The translations under genes were made by a program, and so were the position numbers. 64,000 nt of DNA. It comes from an uncultured delta proteobacterium. Its GTDB lineage: Bacteria > Myxococcota > Myxococcia > Myxococcales > Myxococcaceae. Every line of letters begins with the position of its first letter. The first letter of the stretch is position 1. Positions 30,030 through 64,000 of this stretch are shown one piece after another. The notes beneath the pieces were generated by a model. It had not been told where the DNA came from. It did not search any database and worked only from the letters and a program-made list of their open reading frames with translations. Where the stretch lies: NCBI GenBank assembly GCA_963771175.1, contig CAVYSY010000050.1:145167-209166 (forward strand). Reading direction: 5' to 3'.

Positions 30030-30034
30030 AGGCA

Positions 30035-31261: not shown

Positions 31262-31315
31262 CCAGGAGGGGGAGGGGCAAGGCGGGGCGGTCCTCCGTCC
31301 TCAAGCCCTCTGGTC

Positions 31316-33593: not shown

Positions 33594-33612
33594 GGTACTG
33601 GAAGGGGGTCGC

Positions 33613-34623: not shown

Positions 34624-36326
34624 CAGTGACCTCAAGGGCCCTGCAGCAACTGGCCGCCCTCCTGCTGGAGCGGGCGGGGCTGAAGATCACCCCGGATGGC
34701 TACCACAGCCTCCGGCTCGCGCTGTCCACGCGCATGCCCGTGGTGGGCCTCAAGGACTCCGAGGAGTACGTGCGGCGCCTCCGTGCGCCGTCCTCGGAGG
34801 ACGAGCTGCGCGCGCTGCTGCCGCTCGTCACCGTGGGGCACACGGAGTTCTTCCGAGATCCCAAGCAGTTCCGGGCGCTGGAGAGCCGCATCCTCCCGGA
34901 GGCGCTGTGGCGGGCGCGGCGGGAGAACCGCCGGGTGTCCATCTGGTCCGCGGGGTGCGCCACCGGCGAGGAGCCCTACAGCCTCGCCATGGTGCTGGCG
35001 GAGCAGGGCGCGCTCCCCATCGAGGTGGACCTGTGGGCCACCGATCTGAACCTCGCCGCGGTGGAGGCCGCGAAGCAGGGGCGCTTCTCGTCGCGGCGCG
35101 TCGCCGGCATGCCCGCCGAGCGCCGGGTGCGCTTCTTCCGGCCGGTGGACGAGGGCTACGAGATCGTCTCCTCGTTGAAGGACTATGTCCGCTTCGACGG
35201 GCAGAACCTCGCCGTGCCCGTCTTCGAGAAGGTCAAGCCGGAGTCGTTGGATCTCATCCTCTGCCGCAACGTCATCATCTACTTCGACCTGCCCACCATC
35301 CGCGCGCTGATGGATCGCTTCCTCACGGCGCTGCGACCCGGGGCCCTACTGCTGCTGGGCTACTCGGAGAGCCTCTTCAAGGTCTACGACCGCTTCGAGA
35401 TGGTGGAGGTGGAGGGCTCGTTCGTCTACCGGCGGCCCGAGAAGCCGCTGCCGGTGCGTGCTCCCGGTTCCGGCCCGAGGCCGATGACGATCGGCGCGCT
35501 GCCGCCCACGGGAAGTCGGCCGTCCGTGTCCTCGGGCGGGGCGCAGCCTCGGGAGACGGTCTCGACCCTGGCGCTGCCTCCAAACTCGAGCCTCACGACA
35601 CTGCCAGCTACCCGGGCCCTGCAGAAGACGCTCGATGCGTCGTCGCGCAGGACGGTGGAACTGCCCGCGGTGGGAGCGCCCAAGGCGTCCGAGGGTCCCT
35701 CGGGAGTGAATGGCGCCACCGCCGAGCCGCCCCGGAAGTCGCTCGAGCTGTCCCCCGTGGGGGGCGAGCCTCCGCGCACGCGCACGGGCGAGCTGCCCGC
35801 GTGGTCGCTGATGCTGGCGCCGGGGGAGCGGTTGAACGCGGCCGTGCGGATGATTGAACGCGGGGACTTCGTGTCCGCGGTGGTCACGGTGGAGCAGCTC
35901 CTGGTGGACGAGCCGAACCACCTGGACGCGCTGCTCACCCTGGGCAACCTCTACTCGCTGACGGGCCGCGTGGTGGACGCGCGCGAGTCCTTCTCGCAGG
36001 CCATCAACCGCGAGCCGCTGTGCGTGGAGGCGCGGGTCTTCGGAGGGCTGGCGGCGCTGCAGGCCGGAGAGCTCGCCGAGGCGCGCGGGGAGCTGGGCAA
36101 GGCGCTCTTCCTGGAGCCCACGCTGGCCATCGGGCACTACCTGCTGGCGCAGGTCCACGAGCGGCTGAAGGATCACGAGGCGGCGCGGCGCAGCTACCGC
36201 AATGCCATCTCGCAGCTTCGCTTCCCCCAGCGCCAGCTCGCCGGCCACTACCCGGAGCTGCCGGACTCGGCCGAGGCCATCACCCGCGCGGCGCGCTATG
36301 CGCTCGCCGCACTGGAAGAGGCCTGA
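34617..36326 (+). CDS. frzF: FrzF, CheR methyltransferase with TPR repeats
   Basis: [37 protein letters not shown]-terminal TPRs; ATG at 34617 overlaps the frzG stop. Confidence 0.93.
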
Positions 36327-44140: not shown

Positions 44141-44775
44141 GCTCCGCTCCCGAGCGCGCCTTCCTCTCCGTCCCCCGCCGCCACGGCCTGCGGGTGGTGC
44201 ATGACGGGGACGAGATCGGCTCGCCCTATCCCAAGGCCTCGCTCTGGATGCGGCTGGGCGCGCGCATCGTGGACGTTGCCGTGGCCTGGGGTCTCAGCGT
44301 GGTGTGCGGTGCCGCCGGGGGCGTGGTGGCGCTGCTCTTCCTGCTGCTGGCCGACGGCATGCTCCAGGGCCAGAGCGTGGGCAAGCGCATCTTCGGCGTG
44401 AAGGTGATGCACCTGCCCACGCGCTCGGCCGCCCGCCACCGCGACAGCACCCTGCGCAACGCACCGCTGGCCCTCATCGTCCTGTTGGGGATGATGCCGC
44501 CGCCCCTGGGCGCGGTGGCCTGCGTGGCCGGGCTGGTGGTGATCGGCGGGGTGGAGGCCCTGCGCGTGGTGAGGGATCCGCTCGGCTGGAGGCTCGGCGA
44601 TACCTGGGCCCAGACGCAGGTGGTGGACGGGAAGGTCGTCGCCGGAGCAACGGTTGCAGCACGCACGCCTGTGGCGCCTGCTCGTGTCCCAGGCCGATTT
44701 TTGTCCGCGGCCCGGGTCCGCCGGTTCCGCACATTCAAGAAGTCCAGAAGGGGAAAGCCTTGCGCATCGCGCTGA
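44137..44775 (+). CDS. RDD family membrane protein
   Basis: ASLWMRLGARIVD, GQSVGKRIFGVKV, LRN, RLGDTWAQTQVV; GTG overlaps the upstream stop. Confidence 0.85.
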   Translation: MSSAPERAFLSVPRRHGLRVVHDGDEIGSPYPKASLWMRLGARIVDVAVAWGLSVVCGAAGGVVALLFLLLADGMLQGQSVGKRIFGVKVMHLPTRSAARHRDSTLRNAPLALIVLLGMMPPPLGAVACVAGLVVIGGVEALRVVRDPLGWRLGDTWAQTQVVDGKVVAGATVAARTPVAPARVPGRFLSAARVRRFRTFKKSRRGKPCASR

Positions 44776-46945
44776 CCTACAACCTCAGGCTGTCCGATTC
44801 GGAAGACGAGGCGGAGTTCGACACCCAGGAGACGGTGAACACGCTGGCCTCGGCCATCGAGCGGCTCGGCCACCGGCTGGAGCGCTTCGAGGTCAGCGGC
44901 CCCGCCTCCCGGACGGTCGCGCGGCTCGAGGCCTACAGCCCGGACCTCATCTTCAACATCGCCGAGGGCCGCCGCGGCCGCTTCCGCGAGGCCTTCTATC
45001 CCGGCGCTCTTCGAGGAGCTCGGCTTCGCGTACACGGGCTCGGACGCCTACGCGCTGGCGGTGACGTTGGACAAGCAGCTCACCAAGCTGGTGCTCTCCA
45101 AGCACGGCATCCGCACTCCCGGCTGGCAGTTCGTCGAGAAGCTCAACGAGCTGCAAGGTCGAGGACCTGCGCTTCCCCGTCATCGTCAAGCCCAACTTCG
45201 AGGGCTCCTCCAAGGGCATCACCCAGGACTCGGTGGCCGAGACGGTCGAGCAGGCCCGCGAGAAGGTGGCGAAGGCGCTGGCGCGCTACCCGGCCGGCGT
45301 CCTGGTGGAGGAGTTCATCAGCGGGATGGACATCGCGGTCCCGTACCTCGCGGCGGTGCAGAACGACCATGACGGCGTGCTCAGCCCGATGGAGTACGAC
45401 ATCGACCCGGCCGCCATCGCCGGCCGCAAGTACGCCATCTACGACTACGAGCTGAAGACGAAGAAGGAGAGCGCCGTCAAGATGCGTGCCCCGGCCAACA
45501 TCCCTCCCAGGGTGGCCGAGGAGATGCGCACCATGTCGATGAAGATCTTCCAGGCGCTCGACTGCCGGGACCTGGGGCGCATCGACTTCCGGCTGAGCGA
45601 CGCGGGCGTGCCGTACTTCCTGGAGATCAACGCGCTGCCCAGCCTGGAGCCGGGCGCGGGCATCTACGCCGCCGCGGCCCTGGAGGGCGTGCACCTCGAC
45701 GGCGTCGTCAACGCCATCATCCAGAGCGCGGCGCGGCGCTACAAGATCAAGGACGGCAAGCGCCAGGGCAGGCCGACGCGCAAGTCGGGCCCGCTGCGCG
45801 TGGGCTTCACCTACAACGTCAAGCGCGTGAAGCCCGTCGCGGCGGACGGCTCGGCCGTGGAGGACAGCGAGGCCGAGTACGACTCGCCCACCACGCTGCA
45901 GGCCATCCGCGAGGCCATCGCTTCCTGGGGCCACGAGGTGGTGGACCTGGAGGCCACGGCGGAGCTGCCCAGCGTGCTGGCCAGCACCCCGCTGGACATC
46001 GTCTTCAACATCGCCGAGGGCCTCAAGGGCCGCAACCGCGAGAGCCAGGTGCCGGCGATGCTGGAGCTGCTGGACATCCCGTACACGGGAAGCGATCCGG
46101 CCACGCTCTCGATCGCGCTGGACAAGGCGCTGGCGAAGAAGATCGTCCGCCAGGCCGGCATCCACACGCCGAACTTCCAGCTCATGCACACGGGCAAGGA
46201 GCGGCTCGACAAGCAGTTCACCACCTTCCCGCTGATCGTGAAGCCGGTGGCCGAGGGCTCCTCGAAGGGCGTGGTGAGCAAGAGCGTCTGTCGCAGTGAG
46301 GCCGAGCTGCGCGAGGTGGTGAAGGAGATGGTCACCAAGTACCAGCAGCCGGCGCTCATCGAGGAGTACATCGGCGGACGCGAGTTCACGGTGGGCCTGC
46401 TCGGCGAGCGGCGCCCGCGCGTGCTGCCGCCGATGGAGATCGTCTTCCTCGACAAGGAGGACAAGACGCCCATCTACAGCTTCCAGCACAAGCTGGATTG
46501 GAACGATCGCATCCGCTACGACGCGCCGGCGAAGCTCGAGCCCGCGCTGCTGGAGAAGCTGAGGGCGGCGGCGCGAGGCTCGTTCATGGCGCTGGGCTGC
46601 CGGGACGTGGCGCGCATCGACTTCCGCATGGACGACAAGGGCCGCATCTACTTCATCGAGTGCAACCCGCTGCCGGGCCTCACGCCGGGGTGGAGCGACC
46701 TGGTGCTGATCGCCCAGGGCGCCGGCATGGACTACCGGGGCCTCATTGGCGAGATCATGGCCCCGGCCATCCGCCGCTACAAGGAGCGCGAGGCCCGTCG
46801 CGCCGCCGATGAGAGCGCGGTGACGAAGCCGACCCTGGAGAAGTCCGCCATCGAGAAGGCCACCCTCGCCGAGGAGAAGGCCGGGGCGGGCTCGGGTGGT
46901 TCGTCGTCCGGCGAGGCGCCTCCGCGCATGGAGCTGAAGGCCTGA
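44760..46945 (+). CDS. Tandem D-Ala-D-Ala ligase-like ATP-grasp protein (frameshifts near 45000 and 45156)
   Basis: Two complete copies of FNIAEG..GR.RE, YTGSD, LDK.L.K, IVKP..EGSSKG, EE(F/Y)I.G, LxCRD..RIDFR and (L/I)E.N.LP.L. Confidence 0.85.
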
Positions 46946-46959
46946 AGCCAGACTGACGC

Positions 46960-47036
46960 CCCGAGGGGCGTTACCTCGACACGGCCCGGCACGTCGGTGG
47001 GCAGCTTGCCCCGCGTGCCGGGCTTCATCGTTTCAG
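46960..47036 (+). repeat. Left copy of a ~75-bp direct repeat containing a long hairpin (terminator-like)
   Basis: cccgaggggcgttacctcgacacggcccggcacgtcggtgggcagcttgccccgcgtgccgggcttcatcgtttcag; stem gcccggcacg (46984-46993) / cgtgccgggc (47014-47023). Confidence 0.9.
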
Positions 47037-47057
47037 AGGCTGAGTCGGACAACTTGT

Positions 47058-48170
47058 ATGCCAACCACGACAAATAGAGCACGGAAGGTGCGAAGACTCG
47101 AACGGCGGGCGCTGTCGATTCTTCTCTCCGCCCTATCTCTCGCCTGGCTGCCGCCCTTCGCCACGGCCCATGCACAAGCGTCCGTAGCGAGTGGAGCCCC
47201 CTGTTCCAAGGCCGACTACACGAAGACCCGGCGGCGCTTCCAGGCGCTCTACGACGCGGGTGAGTACACGAAGGCCGTCGAGACCTTGCGACACGCGAAG
47301 GAGGCCTGCTGGGAGGCTCTCGATGCCACGGCTCGCGGTTGGTTGGTGTCCGATCTCGGGCTGGCCGCGCTGCGCGCCGGTCAACCGGACCTCTGTCTTC
47401 AGGCACTCGCAGAGGCTCCCAGGGAGCTCGAGCCCCAATCACGGGTCTCCAAGGCCATCGCGTTCAACCGGGGCCTGTGCACCGGGGCTCCCGCCCAGGG
47501 CACGCCCGCCGCCACACAGGGGACGCCCCTCCCCGTGCAGGTGATGCCAGGGCTCCAGGCCTCGTCACCGACGGAGGCGGCCGCGGCCCTCTCCCGCGAG
47601 TGGCGCGCGCCCTGTGCGCTTCGCGAGGGGAGACTCCCGGAGAGGCAGGAGCGCGAGCTTCGTCGCTGTACCGACCTGGACGGAGTCGACGTGAACGACG
47701 TCGACGTCACGGTGACCCAGGATGTCTACGCCTTCCAGATGAAGACCATCCAGTGCCAAGCCTTGAGGCGGGTGGCCCGAGCCCAACCTTCGCGAGTCAG
47801 TCACGTGCGGGAGGTCCTCACGATGAAGGCGCCCGGCGAGGTGCTTCCGGCGGACCTGGCGGCGGCGTTTTCCGACGAAGACGCCGAGCGGCTCGCCCAG
47901 GCGGCGCGCGCGGGGCGCTCGTGGCGTGACTTCGACAAGGAGCTGCGGTTCGGGGAAGCCCAGGGGCGTGAGCTCGAGGTTCGCGGTGAAGGTGACGAGG
48001 GTTACCTCCAGTGGTGGGCGACCGGGGACTTCAATGCCGACGGGTACGAGGACGTGCTCGTTTTCCGCAGCCTGGGCGCCATCGGTGGAAGCATCGCGGA
48101 CCCGGCGGCTTTCGTGCTGACCCGTACCCAACCCAAGGGCGTTCTCCGGGTCCTGGAACGCCTGCGGTAA
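47058..48170 (+). CDS. Secreted Cys-containing hypothetical protein (candidate immunity protein)
   Basis: Signal peptide ending AHA-Q; helical domain CSKADY..TRRRFQALYDAGEY...C...GWLVSDLG...C...AIAFNRGLC; C-terminal GDFNADGYEDV. Confidence 0.7.
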   Translation: MPTTTNRARKVRRLERRALSILLSALSLAWLPPFATAHAQASVASGAPCSKADYTKTRRRFQALYDAGEYTKAVETLRHAKEACWEALDATARGWLVSDLGLAALRAGQPDLCLQALAEAPRELEPQSRVSKAIAFNRGLCTGAPAQGTPAATQGTPLPVQVMPGLQASSPTEAAAALSREWRAPCALREGRLPERQERELRRCTDLDGVDVNDVDVTVTQDVYAFQMKTIQCQALRRVARAQPSRVSHVREVLTMKAPGEVLPADLAAAFSDEDAERLAQAARAGRSWRDFDKELRFGEAQGRELEVRGEGDEGYLQWWATGDFNADGYEDVLVFRSLGAIGGSIADPAAFVLTRTQPKGVLRVLERLR

Positions 48171-48322
48171 CCGCATCGTAAATTTCGGGGGGCGCCTCCC
48201 GTCGTGGAGGGCAGGTTCTCCGCTGTCGTCTCGCTGCTCTAGACTCCCGCCGCGGGCTGAAAGCCATGTGGCCTTCGTGGGGAAGTCCCCACCGACCCTT
48301 GAATTCAGAAAGGCGGTTCTCG

Positions 48323-49226
48323 ATGTTGCCTGGTAATGAAGGTGCTTCCCGCGGTTGCGCGGCGGGGTGGAGGACCCTCTCGGCCGTGTGTGCCCTGGTG
48401 GTGCTCGCCGCACCACAACGGGCCCGCGCGGAGCAGCTCTGCGATCAGGACCGGAATGGTCGGACCCTCGTCATCCAGATTGGCGAGCGGAAGAACGATG
48501 GCTCGCCACTGGAGCCATACGACCCTCGGCAGCCGATGAACCCCTACGAATTTCCCGGGGACCGCCATCTCTTCCGCCGAAAAGGGAAAGGTCTACCGAG
48601 CCGTGGGCAGGTTCCAGGACCGCCAGGAGGGCGAGTCGGCGTTGAAGCAGGTCTACAACGAGATGCCCCACCTCTATACGGGCGCATATCTCCCGCGCCT
48701 CACCACCCCCGGGGCGTACCTGGTGACCGAGTCACGCACCTGCAAGATCAACCGGAAGAACCCCGTCATCGATCCGGCCTGGTGGATCCTGGAGAAGGAT
48801 GGCGTGCTCCTGGTGGGGTCTCAGACGGAGTGCAAGCAGGGCCAACTCACCAAGACCGTCACCGTGGTGTCGTGCGACGGGATGAAGAACCTGATGACCG
48901 ACTCGGTGTCGGCGCCCTGCGACGCGGGCCGGGTCACCTCCTGCATCCACCCCGTCGTGCCGGGCGTGTTCGCGTTCGAGCACTCCTATTCGGCACTGGC
49001 CCAGGGAACGCAGGTCCGTCTGCGCGTCTACGACGTTCCCAAGAAGAAGCGGCTCCACTCCATCGACGCTGGCCATGACGGAGGTCCGGAGACCGAATTG
49101 ATGAGCGTCGAGGACATCGACAAGGACGGCGTGCCCGAGATCGTTCACACCATCGCCGGCACGGGGGAGCGCACGTCGGTGCTCAAGTGGACCAAGGGCA
49201 GGTTCGTCAAGGTGAAGGCCCCATGA
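48323..49226 (+). CDS. Secreted Cys-rich hypothetical protein (candidate immunity protein; frameshift near 48590)
   Basis: Signal peptide ending ARA-E; several Cys; C-terminal EDIDKDGVPEIV; its TGA overlaps the next ATG. Confidence 0.65.
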
Positions 49227-52200
49227 GCTACGGCTATCAGGAGCCGACTCGCCTGTGCACCACCAAGGGCGAGGTCACGCGCTCGTCCAACTACGGTGAA
49301 CCGAAGACCAAGAACGAATTCGCGGGCTCCAACTCGTTCGAGAAGATCTCCAAGGTTTTCGGCAACCCCCTCCTTGAGAGCTTCTGCGCCAATCACATCG
49401 TCCCCGTGGAGTTGGTGGGCTTCGGGCCGCAGAAGGACCAGGTCCGGAAGATCGACGTCAACCGCAAGCTGGCGCCTCTCTTCGCGGCGGCGTTCGAGAA
49501 GATCAAGGCCGCCAACCTGCCCTATGTGCTGCATGCGGTCGGCGGCCATGTCTTCCGCTACCAGCTGAACCCCTCGGTCCAGGCGGCGCTCGTGGACCGC
49601 CCTGAATACGCGGAGCTGCGTAAGCAGCCCGGCTTCATGGGCAGATGGAACATCGATTGTGCCAGGCACGATCTCAAGCATCAGTCCTTTGACGAGATCG
49701 TCCCGCACGACGGACGCCAGAAGGTCAAGAAGGCGCTGCTCTCCAATCATTCCTGGGGCAACGCCATCGACCTCAATGACCAGACGAATCCGTTCGACAA
49801 GAACAAGCGCTTCGACATGCCCCGAAGAATCGTGGAGATCATGGCGAGCTTCGGGTTCCACTGGGGCGGCTACTACCACGACTACATGCACTTCGAGTAC
49901 CTGCGCGCCAGCGTGGCCGGGCTCTCCGACGAGGAGCCTCCGCAGGTGTTCTTCCCTTTCAACGCGGAGCAGAAACGCGAGTCGCCGCTCAAGTACTTCT
50001 TCCTCAACGAGAGCGGGAAGGGGGGCTACTTCCCGCTGGGGCAGCAGCAGAACCTGCACGGGGGCGTGCATCTGGAGCCGGACTCGCCCAAGACCCTGGT
50101 GCCGGTCCAGGCGGCCATGCCCGGGTACATCGTGGCCGCGCGGCTCATGGCGCCGGGGACGGGCGGAGACAATCCGTTCCTCCAGAATGCCACCGAGGGC
50201 CGCCATCTGGGCTTCGTGCTGATCCGGCACGAGCTGGCGGCGATCGAGGAGGGGAAGGAGTCCGAGCAGGCCCATCCGCTCTACAGCTTGTACATGCACC
50301 TGGCGTCCCCGAAGTGGGACGGGGCGAGCGAGGAGTTCGAGGAGGCGCCCTGGCTCGCGTCCTTCCTGAAGATGCAGTTCGGCGCGGTAGTGGATCTGGA
50401 TCCGAGCAGCGCGGACGTGGGCAAGACCTTCTGGGCCCAGGGGAAGCTGGAGCCAGAGGCGGCCTCCTTCAAGGTCCAGGGCCGCGAGCGGCCCCTGACC
50501 GCCAGGCGCGGCGAGCGCATCGTGGCCCTGGGCAAGCCCAGCCCCAAGGACGTCGAGGAGGCCATCCAGGGCTTCAAAGAGGGCTCCATCGTCACCTTTG
50601 ACCGGCCGCTCTTCCCCGTGGCCGCTGGCGAGACGATCGGCTTCGTCACCCAGGGCCATCCCGTCACCGACCAGCCGCCCAGGTACCTGCACTGGGAGTT
50701 GTTCTCTCTCTCGGGAGGCGAGGGCGGGCTCAAGCTCCTCTTGGAGAAGTCGGGGAGCTTGAAGGCTCTGTTCAAGGAGTTCGAGGAGATCCGGCCGAAC
50801 AACTTCCTGGACATGCCTTTACGCAACAAGCCGGATATCCCCAACGAGGTCCAGAAAATCCTCGGGGACACCGGGGTTCAGATTGTCGAGGAACTGCTCA
50901 ACGACCGGTACGGCACGCGGCTGCGGAGGCACTTCAACGAGGGTAAGACGTTCTTTCCGGCGGGGGAATCGTCCGGAGGAGCAGCTGCCGCACCGTTCAG
51001 CTACCCCCTCGAACTCGAGATCTCGAACCCGCACGAGTACAAGGGCGAGCCGGGGAGTGGGTCCTGCGTTCTCGAGGTCTCCTACAAGAAGACGGGAGCG
51101 TCGCTTCCGGAAGCACGGCGAGGGCAGCGCATTACTCTCACCCCGAACCAGGGCAAGGTCACTCTGACCGTGCCCGCGGAGGCGGATGAGATCGTGCTCT
51201 GGTCGGAGCACTTCTTCCTGGATCAGCCCCTGGTGGTGAAGGCGGAGGAGGTACGCCCCAAGCGGCTCCAGAGCCGCGAGGCCCTCTTCGAAAAGGCCGT
51301 GGCTCAGCGCTGGCGCAACCTCGTGCTGGGCCATATGAGTGAGTGGACGCCGAAGGGCCTCGGCGAACAGCTCGATGCGCGCAAGGAAGCCGGGAACCTC
51401 GACCTGCCGAGCAATGACGAGGCCTTCAAGGCGCTGAAGAAACAGCTCCTGCCGCTGTGTTGGTGGTCCCGTCCGAAGAGCGATGAGGACAAGTTCGGTG
51501 AGGTTCCGGTGCTGGGGCCGGACGCCGGCAAGAGCCTCTTCGGCGCGGACGGCCATCTGCTGCCCGAGGACGCCAAGATCGTCACCATGCACCCGGTCAC
51601 GGCGCTGTGGCTCGTCGATCTCCAGATCGAGAAGGGGTCTATTGCGTTCAAGAAGGAGTGGCCGCCTGTCACGCTCAAGCGCGACGAGAGCACTCAGCAA
51701 CCGCCCTACCTGGACGTGCTCTACAAGGGCGAGAAGCCGTTGGTCGGCATGGAGATGTTGCCCGTGCTGGTGCAGCACGGCTATGGCACGACCGACGGCG
51801 CGGACGCTACCGATGTGTCCTTCTGGGTGACCGCACGGGAAAGCGGCCCGGCACAAGCGCCGATGCGGGTGTGCCGCACGACCTACAACGAGGGCGTTGC
51901 CCTGGGGCGCCTCCGCTTTGCTTTCTGGGGGAAGTGGGAGCTATACGCCACCAACGGGGCCGATCAGCGCTTCGAGCCCGTGAAGACCGGGACGACGGTG
52001 CTCGAGATGCCCAAGCCCGAGCTCTCTGGGCAGACCTTCACGCTCGGCACGGGCAAGCCCGATCCCAGCGGGAAGCTCCGTACCCTCGTCACGGGCGGCT
52101 TCACCAGCAGCGCGAACTGGCCCCTCATGCTCGCCGGCTACCTCGTGTTCGAGTACTGGCGGGTGCCCAAGACGGGTGAGCCCGAGGCGCGGGCCTTCAG

Positions 52201-53681
52201 CAAGCTGGCGATCCCCGTCACCGCGCAGAGACCTCCCGAAGAACAGGTGGAGGGGGGGCTTCGCTACAAGGGTGAGTTCATCGTGGGCGTGGAGAAGGCG
52301 AAGAGCAACCCGAAGGTCACCGCCAACTTTTCCTTCCAGGAGTTCGTGAGCCACAAGCGACTGGGGCTGGTCTTCATGGGTGACGTGAAGGAGTTCACAC
52401 TGGCGGTTCCCCTGGCGCGTCGCCTCCAGGAGCTGCGGGACGTCTGCCGGCCCAGGAGCCGCACGGACAAGGACATCTTCCTGACGGTGATGCGGCTTGA
52501 GGACACCGGTGCTCAATTGCTCGTCATTCCGTCCTCGAACAAAGCCGAGGACCTCCAGGCCATCGTGGACAGGCTGCCACTGCTCTCCGAGAAACCCGAC
52601 CTCAAGGTCGTGCGGGCGGAGGACGAGCCCGCGATCCGGATCAGCCTACGAGCCGAAGCCGGACACCGGCCCGCTCGGCTTCGAGTTCGATCCGGGGCCC
52701 GCGCTGGGGCGGCTCGCCGCGCAAGCGCTCTCCCAGGAAGGCGACAGCCTCCATGTCCGTCCCCACTTCATCGCGCCCAATGGCGGGCACACGCTGCTGG
52801 CCGGGAAGCCCGCCGTGGAGGGCGAGGCGAACCTGATCGAGGCCTCGGCGGAGGACATCAAGGCCGCCTGTGGCAATGACTTCCTCGAACTCGCCGCGGA
52901 CAAGGAGCTGCCTCCCGTGAGCCGGTTCGAGTTCGGCGACTGCGCGATCAAGATGGGCCGCGGCAAGCTCATCACGGAGGTGCGCCTCCACGGCGATGCC
53001 CGTCAATGGACCGCGGCCGGCCCCACTCTCAAGCTCACCGGAGGGGGAGAGTCAAAGAGCTCCATCGTGGGCTCGGTGGTCAGGGCGGATTGGGACCTGG
53101 TCAACAAGAAGGGTGAGGTACTCCCGGGCCGCTGGGGCTCGACGCTCGAGTTCACCACCCGCATCACCAACCCCAACAAGGTGGCGACGCCTCCTCCCCC
53201 GGTGAGCTGGAAGGTCGAGGTCAAGCCGAGCCTCGATGAGCTCACGCTGGAGACCAGGAAGTCGGAGCTCCGGTTCGTGGGCAAGGCCCGCTATGTCCCC
53301 ACGGACATCGATTTGCAGATCGTCTGTGAGCGGATGAGCCGGGCGGGCGTGGGGCAGGAGCTCTCCGCCCCCACCGGAGACCTGCTCGCGGACGGCGCCA
53401 GCGATCAGCCGGTGGAGGCGCTGTGGCAGGAGGACGCGAGCATCACCGGGTCCATCCGCTACACGGTCTCGGCCCGCGCCCATTTTGGGCGCTGCACGGA
53501 GACGGGGGTCTTCGAGGCCACCCTCCCCAAGGCCGCGCTCAAGAAGGACTCGGGGCCCTTCCGCTTCACCTGGCGCCCCCGGGTAGCCAGGGAAGGCGAC
53601 CCGCTCATGATCCATGGCATCGCCGTCCAGGCAGCGTCCACCCCTGAGGTCACCTCCACTGACTTGGGACTCGTCAAATGA
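49223..53681 (+). CDS. Large (~1,480 aa) protein: M15-family peptidase + WHIX-like/M23-fold domain + unknown C-terminal region (frameshift near 52640)
   Basis: M15 motifs: FRY...LSNHSWGNAIDLN...GFHWGGYYHDYMHFEY. Then GYFPLG...LHGGVHL, AAMPGYIVAAR, GFVLIRHE, YSLYMHL, AGETIGF, LHWELFS, HMSEW, LCWW, MHPV. The two ORFs join with consistent coding bias. Confidence 0.75.
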
Positions 53682-55753
53682 GCACGCAGAGCACCGCAGG
53701 ACAGACCGCCGCTCCGGCCCAGAATGCCTTGAGGGAGACCGAGTCGGCCCGCCTGAGCGCGGGATATCGGGACTCCATCTCCTTCGTGCTCGTTCCGCGG
53801 ACCTCCATCACGTTCGACCCGATGGACGCCGCGGCCATGCGGAACCTCGCGAGCCCGAGCGAGCTGCTCATCGACGTCCCCATCCGTGGCAAGGGCAAGA
53901 ACTTCAAGCCCGGGGACGTGCCGTGTGGGCTCACCTGGTTGGTGACGAGTGCGGGGAAGACGGCGTCGTACCCCGTGGATGGCGCGGTGATGAAGGTCGC
54001 GCCGGATGGGAAGTTCCACGTCGAGGTCGAGGGCAAGACTCCCGTCATCGATGTGGTGGCCCAGCGTCTGGTCGGGGAGGGGCTGGTGGGGTTCTCCCTC
54101 TCGCCGGACTTTCCCCACGCCGACACGGCCACCTTCCCGCCGTCCCTCCGGTTTAAAAACACCTGCGCCGTCAACACGAAGCTGCCCAAGCCGGAGGAGA
54201 TGCTCCTGGGAGCGCTCGTGACCTTCTCTCCCGACTTCGGGTGGATCTTCAAGAAGGCGGAGCTCGAACTGCGCGTCATCGAGGTGGATGACGGCTCGAC
54301 CGAGATCGCGGCCGGGACTCCTCGGAGCGCCTTTTCGCACCGGTGGGAGGCGGGAAGCTGGTGGTCGGGCGACCGGGAGTGGGCAATTGGCTTCACGGAC
54401 GACTCCTGTGAGCAGCTCGCGGACGTGGGCGAGGAGGAAGTCGGAAGCTACGAGTTTGGCTGGCAGCTCTGGGGGGCAAGCCGGGCGGGCGGCCCACAGA
54501 CGCTGCTGCTCGAACAGAGGGACTTCATCCGGCTCCCGAAGCCGAAGCTCGAGGACTTCAGACTCGATTACGACAGGACCTGGCAAGGCACCTGGGAGGT
54601 GAGCGGAAAGATCTCGGGCGTGGCCCCGCGCGCCAATCTCATGTTCGAGGTGGCGCTGGTGGAACCGGCGGCGGCCGCCGGGTCGGAGCCCCCGGACTAC
54701 CGTGCCACCAGAATCCAGATTGCTTTGCAGGATGACGGGGTCTTCGAGGGATATCTGGGAGAACGACACCTGCCCTGGGCCGCCGATCCCCTGGCGCCCG
54801 CGGTGCCTGCGGTGCCCCTGAAGCCCACGGCGCCTCTGGCACCGCTCTGCCTCATTCCCGAGGCAGAGCCGCGGGCCTTCGCGATCCTCGCGTTCCCGGC
54901 CGCGGCGCGCGACGGCAAGCCAGGCCCCATGGCGGCCTACCTGGACTTCGACGAGGCCAGGTACTCCGCCTTCAAGGGGCAGGGACTGTCCTGGGATCCG
55001 GATGCCGACTGGATCTGCTCGGAGGAGGGGGTCACGCTGATGCAGCGGCCCCCGAAGCCGAAGCGGCGCAAGTCGGGACTCACCACGAACCCAGCGCCGC
55101 CGGTCGAGACGGGAGACCAGAAAGGGGCCATCACCTTCGACGAGATGTGGCTCGACATCACCGCCTGGGAGGGGGTCGTTGCGTACATGTACCGGGACAC
55201 TGAGGGCCATGTGACAGTGGGGGCCGGCAATCTGCTCAGCCGCCTGGAGAAGAACGGTCCCAACGACAAGATGGCGGCCAAGGGGCTGCCCTTCCAGAAC
55301 ATGGACACAGGCAAGCCGGCGACGGAGGCGGAAATCGAAAGGGCCTTCCGTGGCGTCCAGGCGCTGCCCAAGGCCATGTGGGCCACGGAGTACGCGCTGC
55401 GGCCGAGCATCGCTCTCACCGACCAGACCATCCGTGCTCTCGCCAAGGAGCGGCTCGTCGGGGAGTTCCTCCCTCACCTCGAGCGCTACTTCCCCGACTT
55501 CCACAGCTATCCCCGCGCCGCCCGTCGCGGGCTGCTCGATATCGTCTACAACGTGGGGGTGGGCAAGTTCCCGGGAAAGGGAAACAAGCCGGGCAAGGAC
55601 TTCCTGTTCGACAATTTCACCAAGGCCGCGAGGGCCCGGAACTGGACCGTTGCCGCTGAGAATTGCCACACCTCGGGCACGCCCGAGAACCGGAACGCTT
55701 GGCGCAAGGCACTCTTCCTGTACGCCGCCACTGTCGAGGCGAAGAAGACGTAG
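53678..55753 (+). CDS. Protein with an unknown N-terminal region and a C-terminal phage/T4-type (GH24-like) lysozyme domain
   Basis: WEGVVAYMYRDTEGHVTVGAGNL gives an E-x8-D-x5-T triad; LLDIVYNVGVG, F..AARARNW..AA.E, RN.W; ATGA overlap with the upstream gene. Confidence 0.8.
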   Translation: MSTQSTAGQTAAPAQNALRETESARLSAGYRDSISFVLVPRTSITFDPMDAAAMRNLASPSELLIDVPIRGKGKNFKPGDVPCGLTWLVTSAGKTASYPVDGAVMKVAPDGKFHVEVEGKTPVIDVVAQRLVGEGLVGFSLSPDFPHADTATFPPSLRFKNTCAVNTKLPKPEEMLLGALVTFSPDFGWIFKKAELELRVIEVDDGSTEIAAGTPRSAFSHRWEAGSWWSGDREWAIGFTDDSCEQLADVGEEEVGSYEFGWQLWGASRAGGPQTLLLEQRDFIRLPKPKLEDFRLDYDRTWQGTWEVSGKISGVAPRANLMFEVALVEPAAAAGSEPPDYRATRIQIALQDDGVFEGYLGERHLPWAADPLAPAVPAVPLKPTAPLAPLCLIPEAEPRAFAILAFPAAARDGKPGPMAAYLDFDEARYSAFKGQGLSWDPDADWICSEEGVTLMQRPPKPKRRKSGLTTNPAPPVETGDQKGAITFDEMWLDITAWEGVVAYMYRDTEGHVTVGAGNLLSRLEKNGPNDKMAAKGLPFQNMDTGKPATEAEIERAFRGVQALPKAMWATEYALRPSIALTDQTIRALAKERLVGEFLPHLERYFPDFHSYPRAARRGLLDIVYNVGVGKFPGKGNKPGKDFLFDNFTKAARARNWTVAAENCHTSGTPENRNAWRKALFLYAATVEAKKT

Positions 55754-55859
55754 GCGTGATCGTCGCGGGGGGCCCACCGCACGGTTGGAGTGGCTGCTCT
55801 TTGGAGCGCCCAGCTTGCGAACTCCCGGATTTATCGAATGCTCTCGAGGCCTGACTGGT

Positions 55860-55934
55860 CCCGAGGGGATCACCTCGATACGGCCCGGCACGTCGGTGGC
55901 AGCTTGCCCCGCGTGCCGGGCTTCACCGTTTCAG
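55860..55934 (+). repeat. Right copy of the ~75-bp direct repeat
   Basis: cccgaggggatcacctcgatacggcccggcacgtcggtggcagcttgccccgcgtgccgggcttcaccgtttcag; differs from the left copy by a few substitutions and single-base indels. Confidence 0.9.
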
Positions 55935-56015: not shown

Positions 56016-57020
56016 ATGGAAGAGGATGCTGGTGACAGCGGGTCGGAAACATCGGGGAACGGGCAGGCGGATGCTTTCGAGAGTGAACTCGAGAGCGTCG
56101 GCTCTCAGGCGGCCTACGATGCGTTCCTCGGTGCCGCGAAGCTCCTCGACCCAAGCGTCATCGAAGAGTGCTGTGCCGACGTCGTGCTCGCCTACCACAA
56201 CGTGTCGCGCGGCGTTGAGAACGTGCTGGGCAGCGGGGCGGTGGTCGTCGGCAAGCTGCCCGACGTGAACGTGGTGGAGCTCTCGCTGCTCCCGCGACTC
56301 GCCCAGGGGTTGGTCTTCGCCGCGCTGCAGGTGCATCGCGAACTCCGGAGTGCACCGTTCGGGGTGCTCTTCGAGCGGGCGCAAGTCCTGCGTCGCAAGC
56401 TGCGCAAGGCCGCCGATGCCCTTGCCGAGGCGGGCCTCCTTGCCGATGCCGACATCGATGAAGTCCGGCTCCAGGTTCGGCAAGATGTCCTGGAGGACTG
56501 TCTGGCGCTCGCCGCGTTGTTTCGGAGGAACGAGGGGAGGATCACCGGCCGCTCGCCGGTAGCCGCCGCCGATCTCCGCGAGGCGGAGCAGGTCGCCGAC
56601 AAGCTGCGAACGATGCTCGGGCAGCAAGGGGACGCGGTCGAAGGGGGGGCACCGTCCCTCGTCAAGGTCATCGAGATGCGCGACCGGTTCTGGACGCTGT
56701 TGTTCCAGCGCTACGACGTCCTCTGGCGATGTGGTGCGTGGCTCTACGGCCGTGCGGTCGATGAGCGCGTGCCTCCGCTCCCGATCCGGCAGTCGGTCTT
56801 CCGGAAGTTCCGGAGTGCGCCGGTCGCGCGTGACGCAACGCGGACGGTGTCGGAGCAGCGGCGCATCGTCAGTCCTCCTCCCCTCATGCCCACACGCGTG
56901 AGCACGCCTTCCAGTGGGCCCGCGCGCGACTCGGCCCGGCACCTGAATGATTTGCAGCGTGAGTTGGAGCGGAAGACCCGATTCCTCGTCCGGATCGGCG
57001 CCATTCCGCCCCAGCGCTGA
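56016..57020 (+). CDS. Hypothetical protein
   Basis: 334-aa ORF, mostly helical; its 3' part is duplicated downstream with synonymous-type divergence, which supports coding status. Confidence 0.7.
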   Translation: MEEDAGDSGSETSGNGQADAFESELESVGSQAAYDAFLGAAKLLDPSVIEECCADVVLAYHNVSRGVENVLGSGAVVVGKLPDVNVVELSLLPRLAQGLVFAALQVHRELRSAPFGVLFERAQVLRRKLRKAADALAEAGLLADADIDEVRLQVRQDVLEDCLALAALFRRNEGRITGRSPVAAADLREAEQVADKLRTMLGQQGDAVEGGAPSLVKVIEMRDRFWTLLFQRYDVLWRCGAWLYGRAVDERVPPLPIRQSVFRKFRSAPVARDATRTVSEQRRIVSPPPLMPTRVSTPSSGPARDSARHLNDLQRELERKTRFLVRIGAIPPQR

Positions 57021-57031
57021 TCTGGGAAGGG

Positions 57032-57113
57032 TGAGCCTGCCCCGGGGTTTTGTGGACACCCCCATAAGTCGGCTACACGGGAGGTAGTGTCCATGGAGCG
57101 AAGGAAGAGGCGG
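57032..57113 (+). mobile_element. IS3-family left-end remnant (IRL + start of orfA)
   Basis: TGAGCCTGCCCCGGGGTTTTGTGGACACC resembles IS3/IS51-group IRLs (TGAxCxGCCCCG...); RBS GGGAGG, then ATG 57093 MERRKRR as in orfA N-termini; internal ggacac/gtgtcc inverted repeat. Confidence 0.7.
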
Positions 57114-57551
57114 AGCAGGTCGCCGACAAGCTGAGAGCGATGCTCGGGCTGCAAGGGGACGCGCGCGATGGGGGGGGCACCGTCCCTCGTCAAGGTCATC
57201 GAGATGCGCGACCGGTTCTGGATGTTGTTGTTCCTGCGCTACGACGTGCTCTGGCGGCGCGGTGCGTGGCTCTACGGCCGTGCGATCGATGATCGCGTGC
57301 CACCGCTGCCGGTCCGGCAGGCGTTGATCGGTAAGGCCCGGAGCGCGCCGGTCGAACGGAATGCCGCGCAGCCCGTGCCGGAACGGCGGCGGAGCATGAG
57401 TCCTCCGTCTCCCATGCCCTCACCGGTGAGCCCGTCCTCCAGTGTGCTCGTGGTGCGTGACTCAGCCCGACACTTGCACGATCTGCAGCGGGAACTGGAG
57501 CGAAAGGCCCGGTTCCTCGTCCGGATTGGCGTCGTTCCGCCCCGGAGCTGA
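57107..57551 (+). pseudogene. 5'-truncated paralog of 56016-57020 (copy of 56580-57020)
   Basis: gaggcggagcaggtcgccgacaagctg...GGAPSLVKVIEMRDRFW..LF.RYDVLWR.GAWLYGRA...RDSARHL.DLQRELERK.RFLVRIG occurs in both copies. Confidence 0.8.
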
Positions 57552-57587
57552 GCAGGCCCCTCTTCTCGAAATCCCCGCCGCCCGGCT

Positions 57588-60585: not shown

Positions 60586-63500
60586 GTGCTCCGATTCAAT
60601 TTCCTGACCGCGGCCCTGGTGCTGGCGGTACTCGCTGCCTGTACACCCTCCGGACCGGAAAGGGTGACCCCGGTGGACTCGCTGGGGCGGACGCCCAGTG
60701 CGCTCGTTGCTGACGCCTCCACCGACGTGCTGTGGTCCGGGGCAATCGAAGGATGCCTCAATTGTCGCACCAGTCCGGGCTACCAATGCGTGACGAACAC
60801 GTCCGGAAATGACAACACATACGCGGCTCTCACTCAGACTTTTCAGGACCCGTTCCCCGGCGCGGTGGTGGTGGCGGTCAAGGCGAAGGTGTATGGCCGA
60901 CTCAGCAACACCGAAGATGGTGATGGTACTGAGACCATCCGCGTCACGCTGAATGGTCGGAATGGTCAGCCCGGTCAGGTCTTGAGCCCCACGCATTCTT
61001 CGTCGGAGAGCAACTGGTGCAACGTGGGCAAGACTTGCGAGACCGCTTGGGAGACACGCTACCCCGACCCCATTCCCGCCACCCCCCCCGCCACCCCCAT
61101 TCCCGGGTACGTCAGCGGCGGTGTGAATACCCTGGTGGTGGAGGTCTCCGGTTCAAACAATGGCAACAAGACGTCTGAGTATTGTCTCTCCCATGTCGAG
61201 CTCACCTTCACCTACCTGCCACGGACCCTCGCGATCCTCATCCCCGACGGCGGCAGTTTGGATTTTGGCAATCAGCAGGAGGGCACCACCAGTGCTCCGC
61301 AGCCCGTAAAGGTGCAAAACACCGGTGAGGCGACTGTCAAGTCGATCACCCCCTCCATCCAGGATGCCGTCGGTGGGACCTTTACCGTTGTCCTGACTCC
61401 CTCTCGGAACTGTGCCATTCGACCTGACTCCGGGCCAAACAAAGGACTTGGTGGTGACGTTCACGCCCGCTGTCGATGGCGGCACGGATGGTGGCGTGGC
61501 CTCGGGCATTCTCTCCTTCACCAGCGATGAAACGGATGCCGGGCTTTCCGGCCAACAATCCGAGGGTGGACCTCCCCCTCTCCGGCAGGGGAGTGCCGTT
61601 CGCCGCCGAGGTGAGCCCCGAGTCGCTCACCTTTGGGGCGCAGCGCGTGAACAGCACGAGCACGGCGCAGACGGTGACCGTGCGCAACGTGGGTGACGTG
61701 CCCTCCGCCTACTTGTTCAATATTACGAAGGTCTACATCGGCCCCGGTGAGCCTTTCGTCGTGACCACGGACGCGGGATTTCCGCAGAAGGTGACGGTGG
61801 GCTCCAGCGTGTCATTCCCCGTGACGTTCAATCCCACGGACGCGGGAGTGGGCCAGGGCACCCTCACCATCGAGACCACTGACCCGGTCAGACCGACTTT
61901 CGACGTCCCCCTATCGGGCACGGGGGTGAAGTCCACCATCGGGCGAGCCCGAACCCACTCACCTTTGAGTCGCAGCTGGTGAAGACCTCCAGCGGCTATC
62001 AGACGGTAACGGTGAGCAACACGGGTTCCGCGAGCCTGAACGTCAGCGCCGTGGCCATCACCAGCGGCCCCTACGAGGTGTCGACGGACGGGGGGTTCCA
62101 GGTTGCGGCGGATGGTGGCTCCTACGACCTCTCGGTGAGGTTCAGTCCCTCGGCCGAGGGCAACCAGCCGGGTGTCCTCACCGTAACGAGCGATGACCCG
62201 GACAGGCCCACGGCCAACCTCCCCCTGTCGGGCACGGGCATCAAGCCCACCATCGTGCTGAGTCCAGACGCGGGCCTCATCTTTGCCGCTCAGAGCGTGA
62301 ACACCTCCAGCGATTGGCAGACGGTCACGGTGAGCAACCCCGGCTCCTCCCAGCTGAACGTCAGCTCCGCGACCATCACCAGCGGACCCTTCGAGGTGTT
62401 GTCGTCCGCTGGGTTCCCGGTGGCGGCGGATGGCGGCACCCACACCCTCTCGGTGCGGTTCAGTCCTATCGTCGCGGGCACGGACCAGTCGGGCACCCTC
62501 GCCGTAGCGAGCGATGACCCGGACAGGCCCACGGTCAACCTCCCCCTGAAGGGCACGGGCATCAAGCCCACCATCGCGCTGAGTCCAACCCCCATCAACT
62601 TCGGTCAGCAGAGAGTGGGCACCACCAGCGGGCCCCAGACGGTGATGGTGCGCAACTCCGGTACCGAGACGCTGAAGGTCAGCGGCGTGACCACCGACGG
62701 ACCCTTCGCGGTGTCGTCGACCGCTGGGTTCGAGTTGGCGCCTGACGGTTCAAAGTCCCTCTCCGTGACGTTCAGCCCCACGAGCGAGGGCTCGCTCTCG
62801 GGCATGCTCACCTTCTCCAGCAATGACCCAAGCACGCCCGCGGCCACCGTCAACCTGTCGGGCTCGGGGGTGAAGCCCATGCTCGCGGTGATCCCAGCAC
62901 CTCCGCCAACGCCCCGCTCGACTTCGGTGAGCAGCGAGTGAACACCCCGAGCGTGGCCAGGGAGGTGACGCTGAGCAATACGGGAAGCGGCCCCATCACC
63001 ATCAACACCGTCTCCGTCGCCCCGCCCTTCTCGGTGGTCACGAGCGGATTGTTCTCGCTGGCGAGTGGGGCGAACAAAGTGCTCTTGGTGACGTTCACTC
63101 CCACGAGCGAGGGCGTGCTTCCGGGCTCGCTCACCCTCACCACGGATTACGAGACCACGCCTTCCGCCACCGTGTACCTCTCCGGCAGGGGGGTGAAGCC
63201 CACCGTCCAGGCGAGTCCCACGGCACTCGACTTTGGCTCCCAGACCGTCGGGACTGCCAGCGCGCCCAAGGAACTGACCGTGAGCAATACCGGCAGTGGT
63301 ACCCTGAAGATTACCGACATCCAGGTGACTGGGCCCTTCGGGCTCGACTCGATGCTGCCGTTCAGCCTGCTGGACGCGGGCAGCTCGAAGACACTTCAGG
63401 TGACGTTCCATCCCATCGAACAGAACTTGGCCACAGGGAGCATCACCTTCAATACCAATGACCCGACCCAGAGCACGGTCACCATCAATCTCGCTGGTGA

Positions 63501-64000
63501 TGGAGAGGTCTTGCTGCACGTGTCCACTACCGCCATCGACTTCGGTGACGTGCCCGTCGGGTCGTTCGCGGAGAGGGATGTCACCTTCACCAATAACGGT
63601 ACCTTCGATATCACTCTCACAACGGTGTCCAGTTCCTCCTCGCGGTTCGAATTGGTGGGTTTCACCCCTGTGATCCTCACGCCTGCCGATCCCAGTAAAA
63701 CCTTCAAGGCGAAGTTCACGCCTGGCACGACTGGGGAGTTCATTGGAACCATCACCGTGGGGAGTACGGCCGATAACAGCCCTCACAGGCTGAGTCTTTC
63801 GGGCAGGGGCAACGAAGCGAGGGCGCAGCTTACCCTTGATGGCGGTACTCCGCTCACCACGCTCAATTTCGGATCCGTGGAGGTCGACAGCGCGAAGCAG
63901 GCGACGGTGCGGCTCACGAACATTGGAGGCGCGCCGCTCGACATGACAGGCGCCGCGGTCGTCACCCGGCTGTCAGATGGTGGGACTGCGCCGTCCGCCG
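60586..64000 (+). CDS. Large lipoprotein with many ASH / choice-of-anchor-D Ig-like repeats; runs off the window (frameshifts near 61405, 61960 and 62900)
   Basis: Lipobox VLAAC; repeated LxFGxQxV...VTVxNxG...VTFxP...GxLxxxSxD...VxLSGxG units; near-identical DNA between adjacent repeats (about 62000-62260 vs 62320-62580). Confidence 0.8.

Follow-up and report, generated by a model that had tools for sequence, protein, structure and literature searches.

The DNA analysed here, a 64,000-nucleotide stretch referred to as the window, is contig C50, positions 145167-209166, of the own-genome assembly G000 (9,833,394 bases, 58 contigs, 81.66% completeness). Behind a ddl-like gene, it carries a cassette of four genes between two copies of a direct repeat. 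The first two genes, g1 and g2, encode proteins with N-terminal hydrophobic segments, and the last two, g3 and g4, encode large proteins with predicted peptidoglycan hydrolase domains. We read the cassette as a transferable antibacterial effector-immunity module aimed at peptidoglycan, with a probability of about 0.62; toxicity, immunity, export and delivery route are all predictions from sequence. The reading is carried by the domains of g3 and g4, by the recurrence of these two genes as a pair, by the linkage of g1-like genes to lysozyme genes in other bacteria, and by the insertion site itself.

Four genes between two repeats

The block between the repeat copies measures 8.9 kb, and all of its genes lie on the + strand. 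The four genes are as follows.

47058..48170, + strand: g1, 370 aa, with an N-terminal hydrophobic segment and a C-terminal domain of about 230 aa that has two invariant Cys and a GDFxxDGxED Ca-loop-like motif
48323..49226, + strand: g2, about 300 aa, Cys-rich, with an N-terminal hydrophobic segment and a DxDxDGxPE motif; its stop overlaps the g3 start; +1 insertion near 48579
49223..53681, + strand: g3, 1485 aa when intact, without signal peptide; M15 domain at about aa 100-230 and M23-like domain at about aa 270-500; +1 insertion near 52644
53678..55753, + strand: g4, 691 aa, without signal peptide; N-terminal region of about 470 aa followed by a T4-type (GH24) lysozyme domain at about aa 488-685

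An earlier note on this DNA had described four + strand genes between the repeats. The four genes stand, but g2 and g3 are not open as that note had read them, since each carries a +1 frameshift in the assembly. g1 and g4 are open in the window, while g2 is split between the frames 48266..49078 and 48603..49226 and g3 between 49187..52879 and 52497..53681. Compared with the orthologues of two same-genus relatives, G004 and G008, the window has two non-triplet indels, a +1 at about 48579 in g2 and a +1 at about 52644 in g3, and no others. The genes are intact in G004 (g2, 300 aa; g3, 1485 aa; g4, 691 aa), with ATGA overlaps between g2 and g3 and between g3 and g4. Both overlaps are also present in the window, at 49223 and 53678, as noted earlier. 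A contig from a 97%-identical strain, X1, which is not the same isolate as the window genome, differs from the window by 253 letters and nine gaps over 47041-55796 and lacks both +1 insertions. The own assembly also breaks conserved genes, the ddl-like gene twice and tssC once. Since the insertions are absent from the orthologues and from X1, and conserved genes are broken alike, the frameshifts in g2 and g3 are probably assembly errors.

If both insertions were real, g2 and g3 would be pseudogenes and the cassette a decaying remnant, a question of this copy's condition that would fit any of the functions considered. Both insertions are present in the assembly, and the one at 52644 lies outside any homopolymer run. 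However, the breaks in the ddl-like gene and tssC in an assembly of this completeness and contig number, the uninterrupted X1 contig, and the lack of any other frame-breaking indel relative to G004 and G008 speak against decay, and we regard it as possible though improbable.

N-terminal hydrophobic segments were found only in g1 and g2, in which the most hydrophobic 19-mer is N-terminal; there is none at the N-terminus of g3 or g4. This agrees with the earlier description of two Cys-containing proteins with signal peptides and DxDxDG-like motifs (GDFNADGYED in g1 and DIDKDGVPE in g2) followed by two large proteins without signal peptide. Both g1 and g2 are Cys-rich. Profile-profile comparison found no homology within the cassette: g1 and g2 shared only a 16-column DxDxDG stretch at a probability of 0.5%, and g4 aligned with g3 over 68 columns at a probability of 2%.

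Predicted wall-degrading domains of g3 and g4

The M15 domain of g3 (PF13539, Peptidase_M15_4, VanY/Ply500-like) was matched in the window protein with an E-value of 2.6e-13 and 50.8 bits against a cut-off of 25, and in the intact G004 orthologue with 48.2 bits. Across 38 sequences, the zinc ligands H176, D183 and H223 show conservation of 90% or more. The g3 family profile also matches the phage lysin Ply500 (PDB 2vo9; E 4e-4) over the SxHxxGxAxD...HFE zinc site. With a score above the cut-off and the zinc site kept, g3 belongs to the M15 peptidase family. It also appears to have an M23-like domain, which the earlier note had missed. In this region H283xxxD287, H359 and H490 are invariant, and the first His of the HxH element is a Tyr (YLHWE); HxxxD plus HxH defines the M23 (LytM-type) motif. 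PF01551 (M23) gave no Pfam match in g3, either in the window or in the intact G004 orthologue, and one distant g3 homologue of 1651 aa has PF01551. The remaining 1000 aa or so of g3 gave no matches.

The lysozyme domain of g4 was identified through its family. The window protein scores 17.7 bits with PF00959, under the Pfam cut-off of 22.3, but 27 of 31 g4 family members match this model at E<=1 (best 4e-7) and three homologues have a precomputed PF00959 domain. The g4 segment EG..(x)YRDTEGHVTVGAGN aligned to T4 lysozyme residues 11-38. E498, D507 and T513 are invariant in 27 sequences and align to E11, D20 and T26, the catalytic residues of T4 lysozyme. Thus, of the two hydrolase domains claimed earlier, the M15 domain stands on the window protein's own score, and the lysozyme domain on the family matches and the aligned E/D/T residues. 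The proposed combination of a cutter of the peptide stem with a cutter of the glycan chain, alongside exported proteins, is borne out by this domain content. The N-terminal region of about 470 aa of g4 is common to paralogues of about 830 aa, and its fold is unassigned; it matched nothing, and an Atlas search gave no lead (best score 0.81).

The Pesticin C-terminal model weakly matched one g4-family member (E 0.025) and two small metagenomic lysozymes (E 0.0014 and 0.00055). These matches bear on an alternative in which g3 and g4 are bacteriocin-like lysins of the pesticin type: some producer cells would lyse, the two proteins would use their large non-catalytic regions to enter susceptible cells unaided through an outer-membrane receptor, and g1 and g2 would protect from re-entry, with no secretion machine involved. 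The missing export signals, the large unassigned regions of both proteins, and the location of most cassette copies away from type VI secretion system (T6SS) genes fit this alternative. Pesticin has periplasmic immunity. The g4-family catalytic domain is C-terminal as in pesticin, but the catalytic domains of g3 are N-terminal, unlike colicin-type layouts, and the own-genome copy probably sits beside a T6SS cluster. No lysis gene, TonB-box annotation or receptor-binding domain was found, with tools not suited to detecting one. We consider a pesticin-type system unlikely.

A conserved pair with swapped catalytic heads

Of the 17 same-genus relatives, five further Archangium species carry the cassette at loci of their own, one of them as a truncated copy. 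The copies in G004 and G008 are 84-89% identical in nucleotide sequence over 8.3-8.7 kb and lie at a different locus, where a Mut7-C RNase gene follows them; in G008 an isoleucyl-tRNA synthetase gene lies on the upstream side. Copies of about 70% nucleotide identity were found at a second locus of G008 and in G003 and G001, and the truncated copy is in G009. Full-length g4 occurs in 5 of the 17 relatives. All six complete loci have g2, g3 and g4, and g1 is missing from one of them (L011). The cassette loci of G004, G008 and G003 have no flanking repeat. A 37-nt direct repeat that flanks the G001 cassette was considered as an insertion signature and rejected, since at least 40 copies of it are present in the G001 genome.

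Other, more distantly related pairs keep the g3 body and the g4 N-terminal domain and have their heads swapped. In G001, locus L016 combines an M15 domain and a PF11860 muramidase, and the next gene encodes a lipoprotein that contains DTDRDG. In the C39-like type, found in the own genome (contig C2), G013, G015 and G051, the head is papain-like (DWCGRTS; PF13529 E 2.8e-4) and an SH3 protein with a signal peptide is encoded upstream; such pairs with a C39-like head occur in several genera of the family. The own-genome module of this kind (L015, G000:C2:113600-122400) has the SH3 signal-peptide protein, an apparently frameshifted g3-like gene, and a g4-like protein of 822 aa with a weak match to a tail-lysozyme model. 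By hidden Markov model (HMM) comparison, the L016 lipoprotein and the SH3 proteins are unrelated to g1 or g2. As judged from sequence, g3 and g4 are a conserved pair that is always predicted to be wall-directed and always has a linked, putatively exported protein. The earlier note had seen a two-toxin module. Two signal-less peptidoglycan hydrolases are indeed predicted, but independent toxins are not favored: since g3 and g4 recur as a pair, in paralogous versions with swapped catalytic heads, they are probably partners that work together.

The distribution also bears on whether g3 and g4 might serve another contact-dependent predation route (Kil/Tad-like, T3SS-like, or an unnamed machine), making local holes in the prey wall. 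Myxococcus xanthus is reported to kill on contact without requiring a T6SS, opening local holes in the peptidoglycan of its prey, by means of a toxin still to be discovered (PMC8460266). The pairs with C39-like heads in several genera of the family would suit such a role. However, g3 relatives at E<=1e-20 were found in only 18 of 151 family genomes and 6 of 51 genera, and among the five genera with at least 10 genomes sampled, the g3 query matched nothing in four and one genome of 10 in the fifth. This patchiness makes a general predation toxin unlikely, at least with g3 as the query, and the immunity-like genes suggest attack on kin with similar walls. Delivery by another contact-dependent route is quite unlikely in our view.

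All of the head variants (M15, C39-like, M23-like, GH24 and PF11860) are of kinds that cut peptidoglycan. This would also be expected of an endogenous, inhibited autolysin set acting on the cell's own wall, in developmental lysis or spore-wall removal, with g1 and g2 as periplasmic brakes. In keeping with such brakes, the consulted part of a study of a Xanthomonas effector states that the immunity protein XAC2610 mainly prevents self-intoxication by XAC2609 (PMC10933484). Yet the enzymes have no export signal, and the insertion lies in a variable region. Most species of the genus and family also lack the module, and its locus differs among those that have it, which is unsuited to a core developmental function. 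An autolysin set is very unlikely on these grounds.

Linkage of g1 to lysozyme genes

The g1 family is uncurated and comprises 517 clusters at E<=1e-3, of which the own genome holds a single member, and the GDFNADGYED motif is invariant or nearly so within it. A metagenome scan seeded with one g1 relative gave 46 loci, and a narrower g1 alignment run against genome contigs gave one. Linkage to GH24 was scored over 47 loci with HMMs of the g4 lysozyme domain and the g1 domain. A g4-type lysozyme gene adjoins the g1-like gene in 10 of the 47 loci, 8 of them distinct (metagenome or metagenome-assembled genome (MAG)), with E-values from 2.8e-51 to 1.8e-13. The lysozyme gene lies directly upstream on the same strand in L028, L030, L031, L033/L035, L034, L037/L038 and L050, and the two genes are convergent in L017, from an alphaproteobacterial MAG. 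Among the 11 best g1 matches, 8 have a lysozyme neighbor, 2 have no upstream flanking DNA, and 1 has no such neighbor. Pfam Phage_lysozyme upheld the assignment in L034, L050 and L037/L038; its match in L030 was weak. The two L030 proteins share 45% identity with g4 (E 2e-46) and 32% with g1 (E 1e-30), respectively. The pairwise identities of the lysozyme and g1 domains are correlated (r 0.93; 78 pairs from 13 loci, which are kin and not independent).

Linkage of g1-like and lysozyme genes beyond myxobacteria is the classic signature of a cognate inhibitor. The assignment of g1 as the cognate immunity protein for the g4 lysozyme domain is, as a prediction from these data, fairly secure. More generally, a signal-less hydrolase linked across lineages to an exported protein is the pattern expected of effector-immunity systems, and it is seen for g1 with GH24 and for g2 with g3. 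The upstream immunity candidates of the earlier note are thus supported for g1 by lysozyme-g1 gene pairs in unrelated metagenomic bacteria, and for g2 by linkage only.

Membership of g1 in the XAC2610 family was considered and rejected by sequence, as its matches are all sub-threshold. No chain named XAC2610 or X-Tfi was among the 49 weak matches of the g1 family profile to the PDB.

Some of the metagenomic pairs have further genes nearby. In L034 (265-8612) the lysozyme-g1 pair is near a 1673-aa protein ending in Peptidase_C70, and in L030 (404-4149) near a divergent 446-aa protein ending in a VanY/M15 domain. Directly downstream of the pair, both L028 and L030 encode a protein with LysM-like and PG_binding_1 domains.

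The position of g2

g2 is intact in G004 (L009:7398-8300) and in the X1 contig. It has 31 homologues, every named one of which is myxobacterial, and several have lipoboxes or lipoprotein names. The DxDxDGxPE motif is invariant in the family. g2 occurs in 6 of 6 complete cassette loci with the ATGA overlap into g3, and this linkage and translational coupling make it a candidate partner or immunity protein for g3, an assignment that is weak. A SPOR domain was proposed for g2 by a language-model search (0.90, 165 shared features) and was rejected because Pfam on 29 members did not uphold it.

G008 has an extra g2 copy (L010 2827-5907; 78% amino acid identity) 4.6 kb upstream of the cassette's own g2, and it may be an orphan immunity gene or belong to another pair. 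It is followed by a 656-aa DUF4215/myxobacterial cysteine-rich-repeat protein.

Insertion behind the ddl-like gene

The features at the edges of the cassette are as follows.

44760..46945, + strand: tandem ddl-like (double ATP-grasp) gene, PF07478 E 1.2e-60 in two stretches; outside the cassette, its 3' flank being the insertion target
46960..47036, + strand: left direct-repeat copy, native to the 3' flank of the ddl-like gene and resembling a hairpin terminator, starting 15 nt past the ddl stop
55827..55844, + strand: solo end (terminal inverted repeat) of an IS5/IS1182-like insertion sequence (IS) element at the inner edge of the right repeat; its pattern matches the ends of the IS at G000:C6:90381-92112
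55858..55934, + strand: right direct-repeat copy, running on into native downstream sequence

The ddl-like gene encodes two D-Ala-D-Ala-ligase-type ATP-grasp units in tandem. It is found across the order and is 91-94% identical in 17 of 17 same-genus relatives. In the own assembly two +1 insertions can be read from the sequence near 45000 and 45157, and the open frame is 626 aa in the window compared to 644-970 aa in the relatives.

The direct repeats described earlier as about 75 bp were borne out at about 77 nt. They consist of 47000-47036/55898-55934 (37 nt, 97%) and 46966-47000/55865-55899 (35 nt, 89%), one indel apart; when extended to 46940-47036/55846-55934, 77 of 97 aligned columns are identical. 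A BLAST search of 46955-47040 against the whole assembly found two places, itself and a match of 92% identity over query positions 6-82. Both copies are predicted to fold into long G+C-rich RNA hairpins, the left at -52.4 kcal/mol (z -4.0) and the right at -45.7 kcal/mol (z -3.2).

Comparison of the ddl-like locus across relatives, as the earlier note had suggested, found both an empty site and different cargo. G006, G012, G014 and G008 have a single repeat copy after the ddl-like stop, and the sequence that follows it in G006 matches the continuation of the window's right copy and not the left. The single copy in relatives and the native continuation of the right copy indicate that the repeat is the native terminator region of the ddl-like gene, which was duplicated upon an 8.8-kb insertion behind it. 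Since both window copies share bases that differ from other species, the duplication arose in the own lineage. The block between the repeats is, therefore, a discrete insertion with an empty site in relatives. Its G+C content is 66.0% compared to 69.7% in the left flank, and G+C at third codon positions is 0.80-0.90 in the cassette compared to 0.97 in ddl.

Within the genus, what lies downstream of ddl is hypervariable. The region is nearly empty in G006, encodes large RCC1-repeat exported proteins in G012 and G014, is occupied by unrelated genes in G004 and G016, and carries IcmF-like and IglE-like T6SS genes in G008. The ddl site thus carries different cargo in different genomes; with the four genes also found at unrelated loci elsewhere, the earlier idea of an exchangeable cassette holds.

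A full copy of the IS5/IS1182-like element is present at G000:C6:90381-92112 (L026). It is 1.73 kb long, encodes a 416-aa transposase (DDE_Tnp_1 plus DUF772), has the inverted ends AGAGCNNTCGATAAATCCC, and is flanked by a 3-bp target duplication, TAA. Five end-like matches to this element were found in the own genome. In strain X1, loose contig ends match both IS ends in inverted orientation and flank TGA at 47041-47043, which we read as an IS copy inserted there, and 55797-55897 is replaced by 42 other letters. The solo IS end and the X1 IS ends at the junctions indicate that the cassette junctions are IS-active. No tRNA or tmRNA gene was found in the window, and neither the cassette nor the 39 other window open reading frames (ORFs) gave a Pfam match to an integrase or recombinase, the solo IS end being the only such trace. 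In comparison with an integrase-borne genomic island, the repeats are present without an integrase/recombinase or a tRNA. Rfam gave only a sub-threshold DnaX match in the window (56542-56573, outside the cassette), and a promoter and terminator consensus scan was no better than shuffles.

T6SS context and delivery

The distance from the ddl-like gene to tssC, which follows it downstream, was checked in five relatives and is 17.5-21.3 kb in all five. In the own genome, the terminal 2.8 kb of contig C39 (459051-461836) match window positions 61210-64000 in reverse orientation at 98.5%, and C39 is collinear with G006 around tssC, with tssB/tssC at C39:447285-449033. From the 2.8-kb overlap, contigs C50 and C39 are probably neighbors, and the T6SS cluster would continue past the window end. 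If the join holds, tssC is about 18.9 kb from the right repeat and the cassette lies in the variable flank of the T6SS cluster. VgrG-like matches were found on two other contigs, C30 and C45.

The cassette probably lies beside a T6SS cluster in the own genome, yet the G004 and G008 copies are distant from the tssC or IglE matches there, so the T6SS is the leading but unproven route. Within the effector-immunity explanation we name it as a best guess only, somewhat short of an even chance.

IglE_N was tried as a marker of cassette carriers and rejected, since 14 of 17 genus relatives have it irrespective of the cassette. The T6SS cluster downstream of ddl in G008 has this Francisella-type IglE lipoprotein domain. 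Four proteins are encoded there, at L008 1060-10384 and 2-11 kb from the ddl-like gene: an IcmF-like protein of 1262 aa, the IglE_N lipoprotein, a coiled-coil protein of 685 aa and one of 643 aa that gave no Pfam match. In the own genome, a 144-aa ORF at G000:C39:451057-451491 (L074), about 2 kb from tssB, contains GAMLQCSFGVAPSSLVVLPANKV, a sequence that may be typical of DUF4280, a PAAR-like domain.

Proposed mechanism and points that weigh against it

In the proposed mechanism, the block was presumably inserted between the ddl-like terminator and the variable flank of the T6SS cluster, with duplication of the terminator. g2, g3 and g4 would be translationally coupled. g3 and g4 would be made in the cytoplasm without export signals, and, going by domain content, in the target periplasm g3 would use its M15 and M23-like domains to cut the peptide stem, and g4 its GH24 domain to cut the glycan chain. 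g1 and g2 would be exported to the producer periplasm, where g1 would block the g4 lysozyme domain and g2 would most likely block or escort g3.

Several observations weigh against an effector-immunity module. Regarding delivery, Pfam found no vgrG, PAAR, hcp or known adaptor gene among the 39 window ORFs outside the cassette; the earlier note had likewise reported neither vgrG/PAAR nor an integrase in the window, and by contig overlap the T6SS cluster lies just beyond the window end. The cassettes of G004 and G008 are far from the tssC or IglE matches of those genomes, and 19 kb to tssC is loose linkage even in the own genome. The heads of the g4 paralogues all appear to be glycan-cutting, which fits a dedicated lytic machine as well as a polymorphic toxin. 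Regarding g1, the metagenome loci were found from one g1-relative seed and are kin, not an unbiased sample, and the second G008 copy of the cassette is complete without g1. The g1 match to XAC2610_fam (NF047539) reaches 14.1 bits against a cut-off of 35 and covers only the 22-residue loop, and the same model weakly matches 7 of 50 g1 relatives (best E 0.017). g2 has no Pfam or PDB relative and is absent from the M15-type paralogue L016. Finally, g2 and g3 read as broken in the own assembly, so the module may be inactive here.

Other features of the window

A 528-bp tandem duplication (82-91% identity) at 56580-57556 covers the 3' part of a 334-aa gene without known function (56016-57020). It leaves a partial second gene copy at 57168-57551, and a further copy of the segment is at G000:C39:455752-456147. 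A chemotaxis set (methyl-accepting chemotaxis protein, CheA-like, CheB, and CheR-TPR) lies at 29646-36326 and an Mrr-type restriction endonuclease with a HARE-HTH domain at 6786-9053. Many window genes seem split between frames, which fits indel errors throughout the assembly.

Comparison with known systems

Effector-immunity modules that attack peptidoglycan are already well known, and all four cassette proteins are outside the curated effector and immunity families: none matched a family that Pfam or NCBIfam curates for T6SS effectors or their immunity proteins. Full-text searches of the literature, supplements excepted, found no description of the cassette architecture, in agreement with the earlier note, which did not recognise it as one described in myxobacteria. 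The contact-killing wall toxin is still unidentified according to the consulted part of PMC8460266, which makes signal-less wall hydrolase pairs concrete knock-out candidates. The architecture is unusual in having two exported proteins before the effectors, a 1485-aa double peptidase, and a lysozyme-headed partner that co-varies with the peptidase. The g1-GH24 gene pair gives a candidate new immunity family of more than 500 sequence clusters that can be put to the test. Next to a T6SS cluster, the site shows cleanly how cargo is exchanged in nature, with empty-site sister species, a duplicated terminator and an IS end. A bolder reading, which we hold to be doubtful, is that g3, g4 and the paralogues with C39-like, PF11860 and tail-lysozyme heads form, in Myxococcaceae, a class of giant, paired effectors that degrade the wall and have not been described before, whose large non-catalytic bodies would be their own delivery or penetration device and which might supply the hydrolase of contact-dependent lysis by some myxobacteria. 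In that reading g1 would also found an uncurated immunity family of more than 500 clusters, specific to a GH24 subfamily and reaching beyond myxobacteria.

The T6SS wall effector-immunity pairs include Tae/Tai, Tge/Tgi and the pesticin-like VgrG3/TsiV3. The cassette resembles them in placing signal-less peptidoglycan hydrolases beside periplasmic immunity genes, in variable regions near or away from T6SS clusters. It differs in that there is no VgrG/PAAR fusion or adaptor gene, the immunity candidates are upstream, and the effectors, at 1485 and 691 aa, are of great size and form a conserved pair. Pesticin, with its immunity protein Pim, is also a longer protein without signal that ends in a T4-lysozyme-like killing domain, and its immunity is periplasmic. 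In contrast to pesticin, matches to the Pesticin model were only weak and sub-threshold, and came from relatives, no uptake domains were recognised, and the cassette adds a giant peptidase partner. The M15 domain of g3 aligns over the zinc site with the L-alanyl-D-glutamate peptidase Ply500 (PDB 2vo9) and with LAS/VanY-type M15 enzymes. However, the catalytic chain of Ply500 comes from a phage lysin and has 179 aa, whereas the M15 domain of g3 heads a 1485-aa protein with no phage genes around.

In the pair XAC2609/XAC2610 of the bacteria-killing Xanthomonas type IV secretion system (T4SS), a signal-less lysozyme-like effector is matched by an exported lipoprotein inhibitor with a conserved acidic Ca-binding loop, as far as the consulted part of the source describes it (PMC10933484). 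On that description, g1 is like the inhibitor X-Tfi(XAC2610) in its similar GDFxxDGxED loop and its linkage to a lysozyme domain. The g1 score is below the XAC2610_fam cut-off in a comparison made by sequence and not by fold. The effector X-Tfe(XAC2609) carries GH19 and the XVIPCD T4SS signal, in contrast to g4, in which GH24 is fused to an unassigned domain of 470 aa. Finally, the polymorphic toxin loci of myxobacteria, such as SitA, which is transferred by outer-membrane exchange, and the T6SS toxins, are likewise strain-variable toxin-immunity loci that move between genomes, as set out in the consulted part of PMC8460266. SitA toxins are lipoproteins according to the same part of that source, whereas g3 and g4 have no signal peptide and are predicted to be targeted to the wall.

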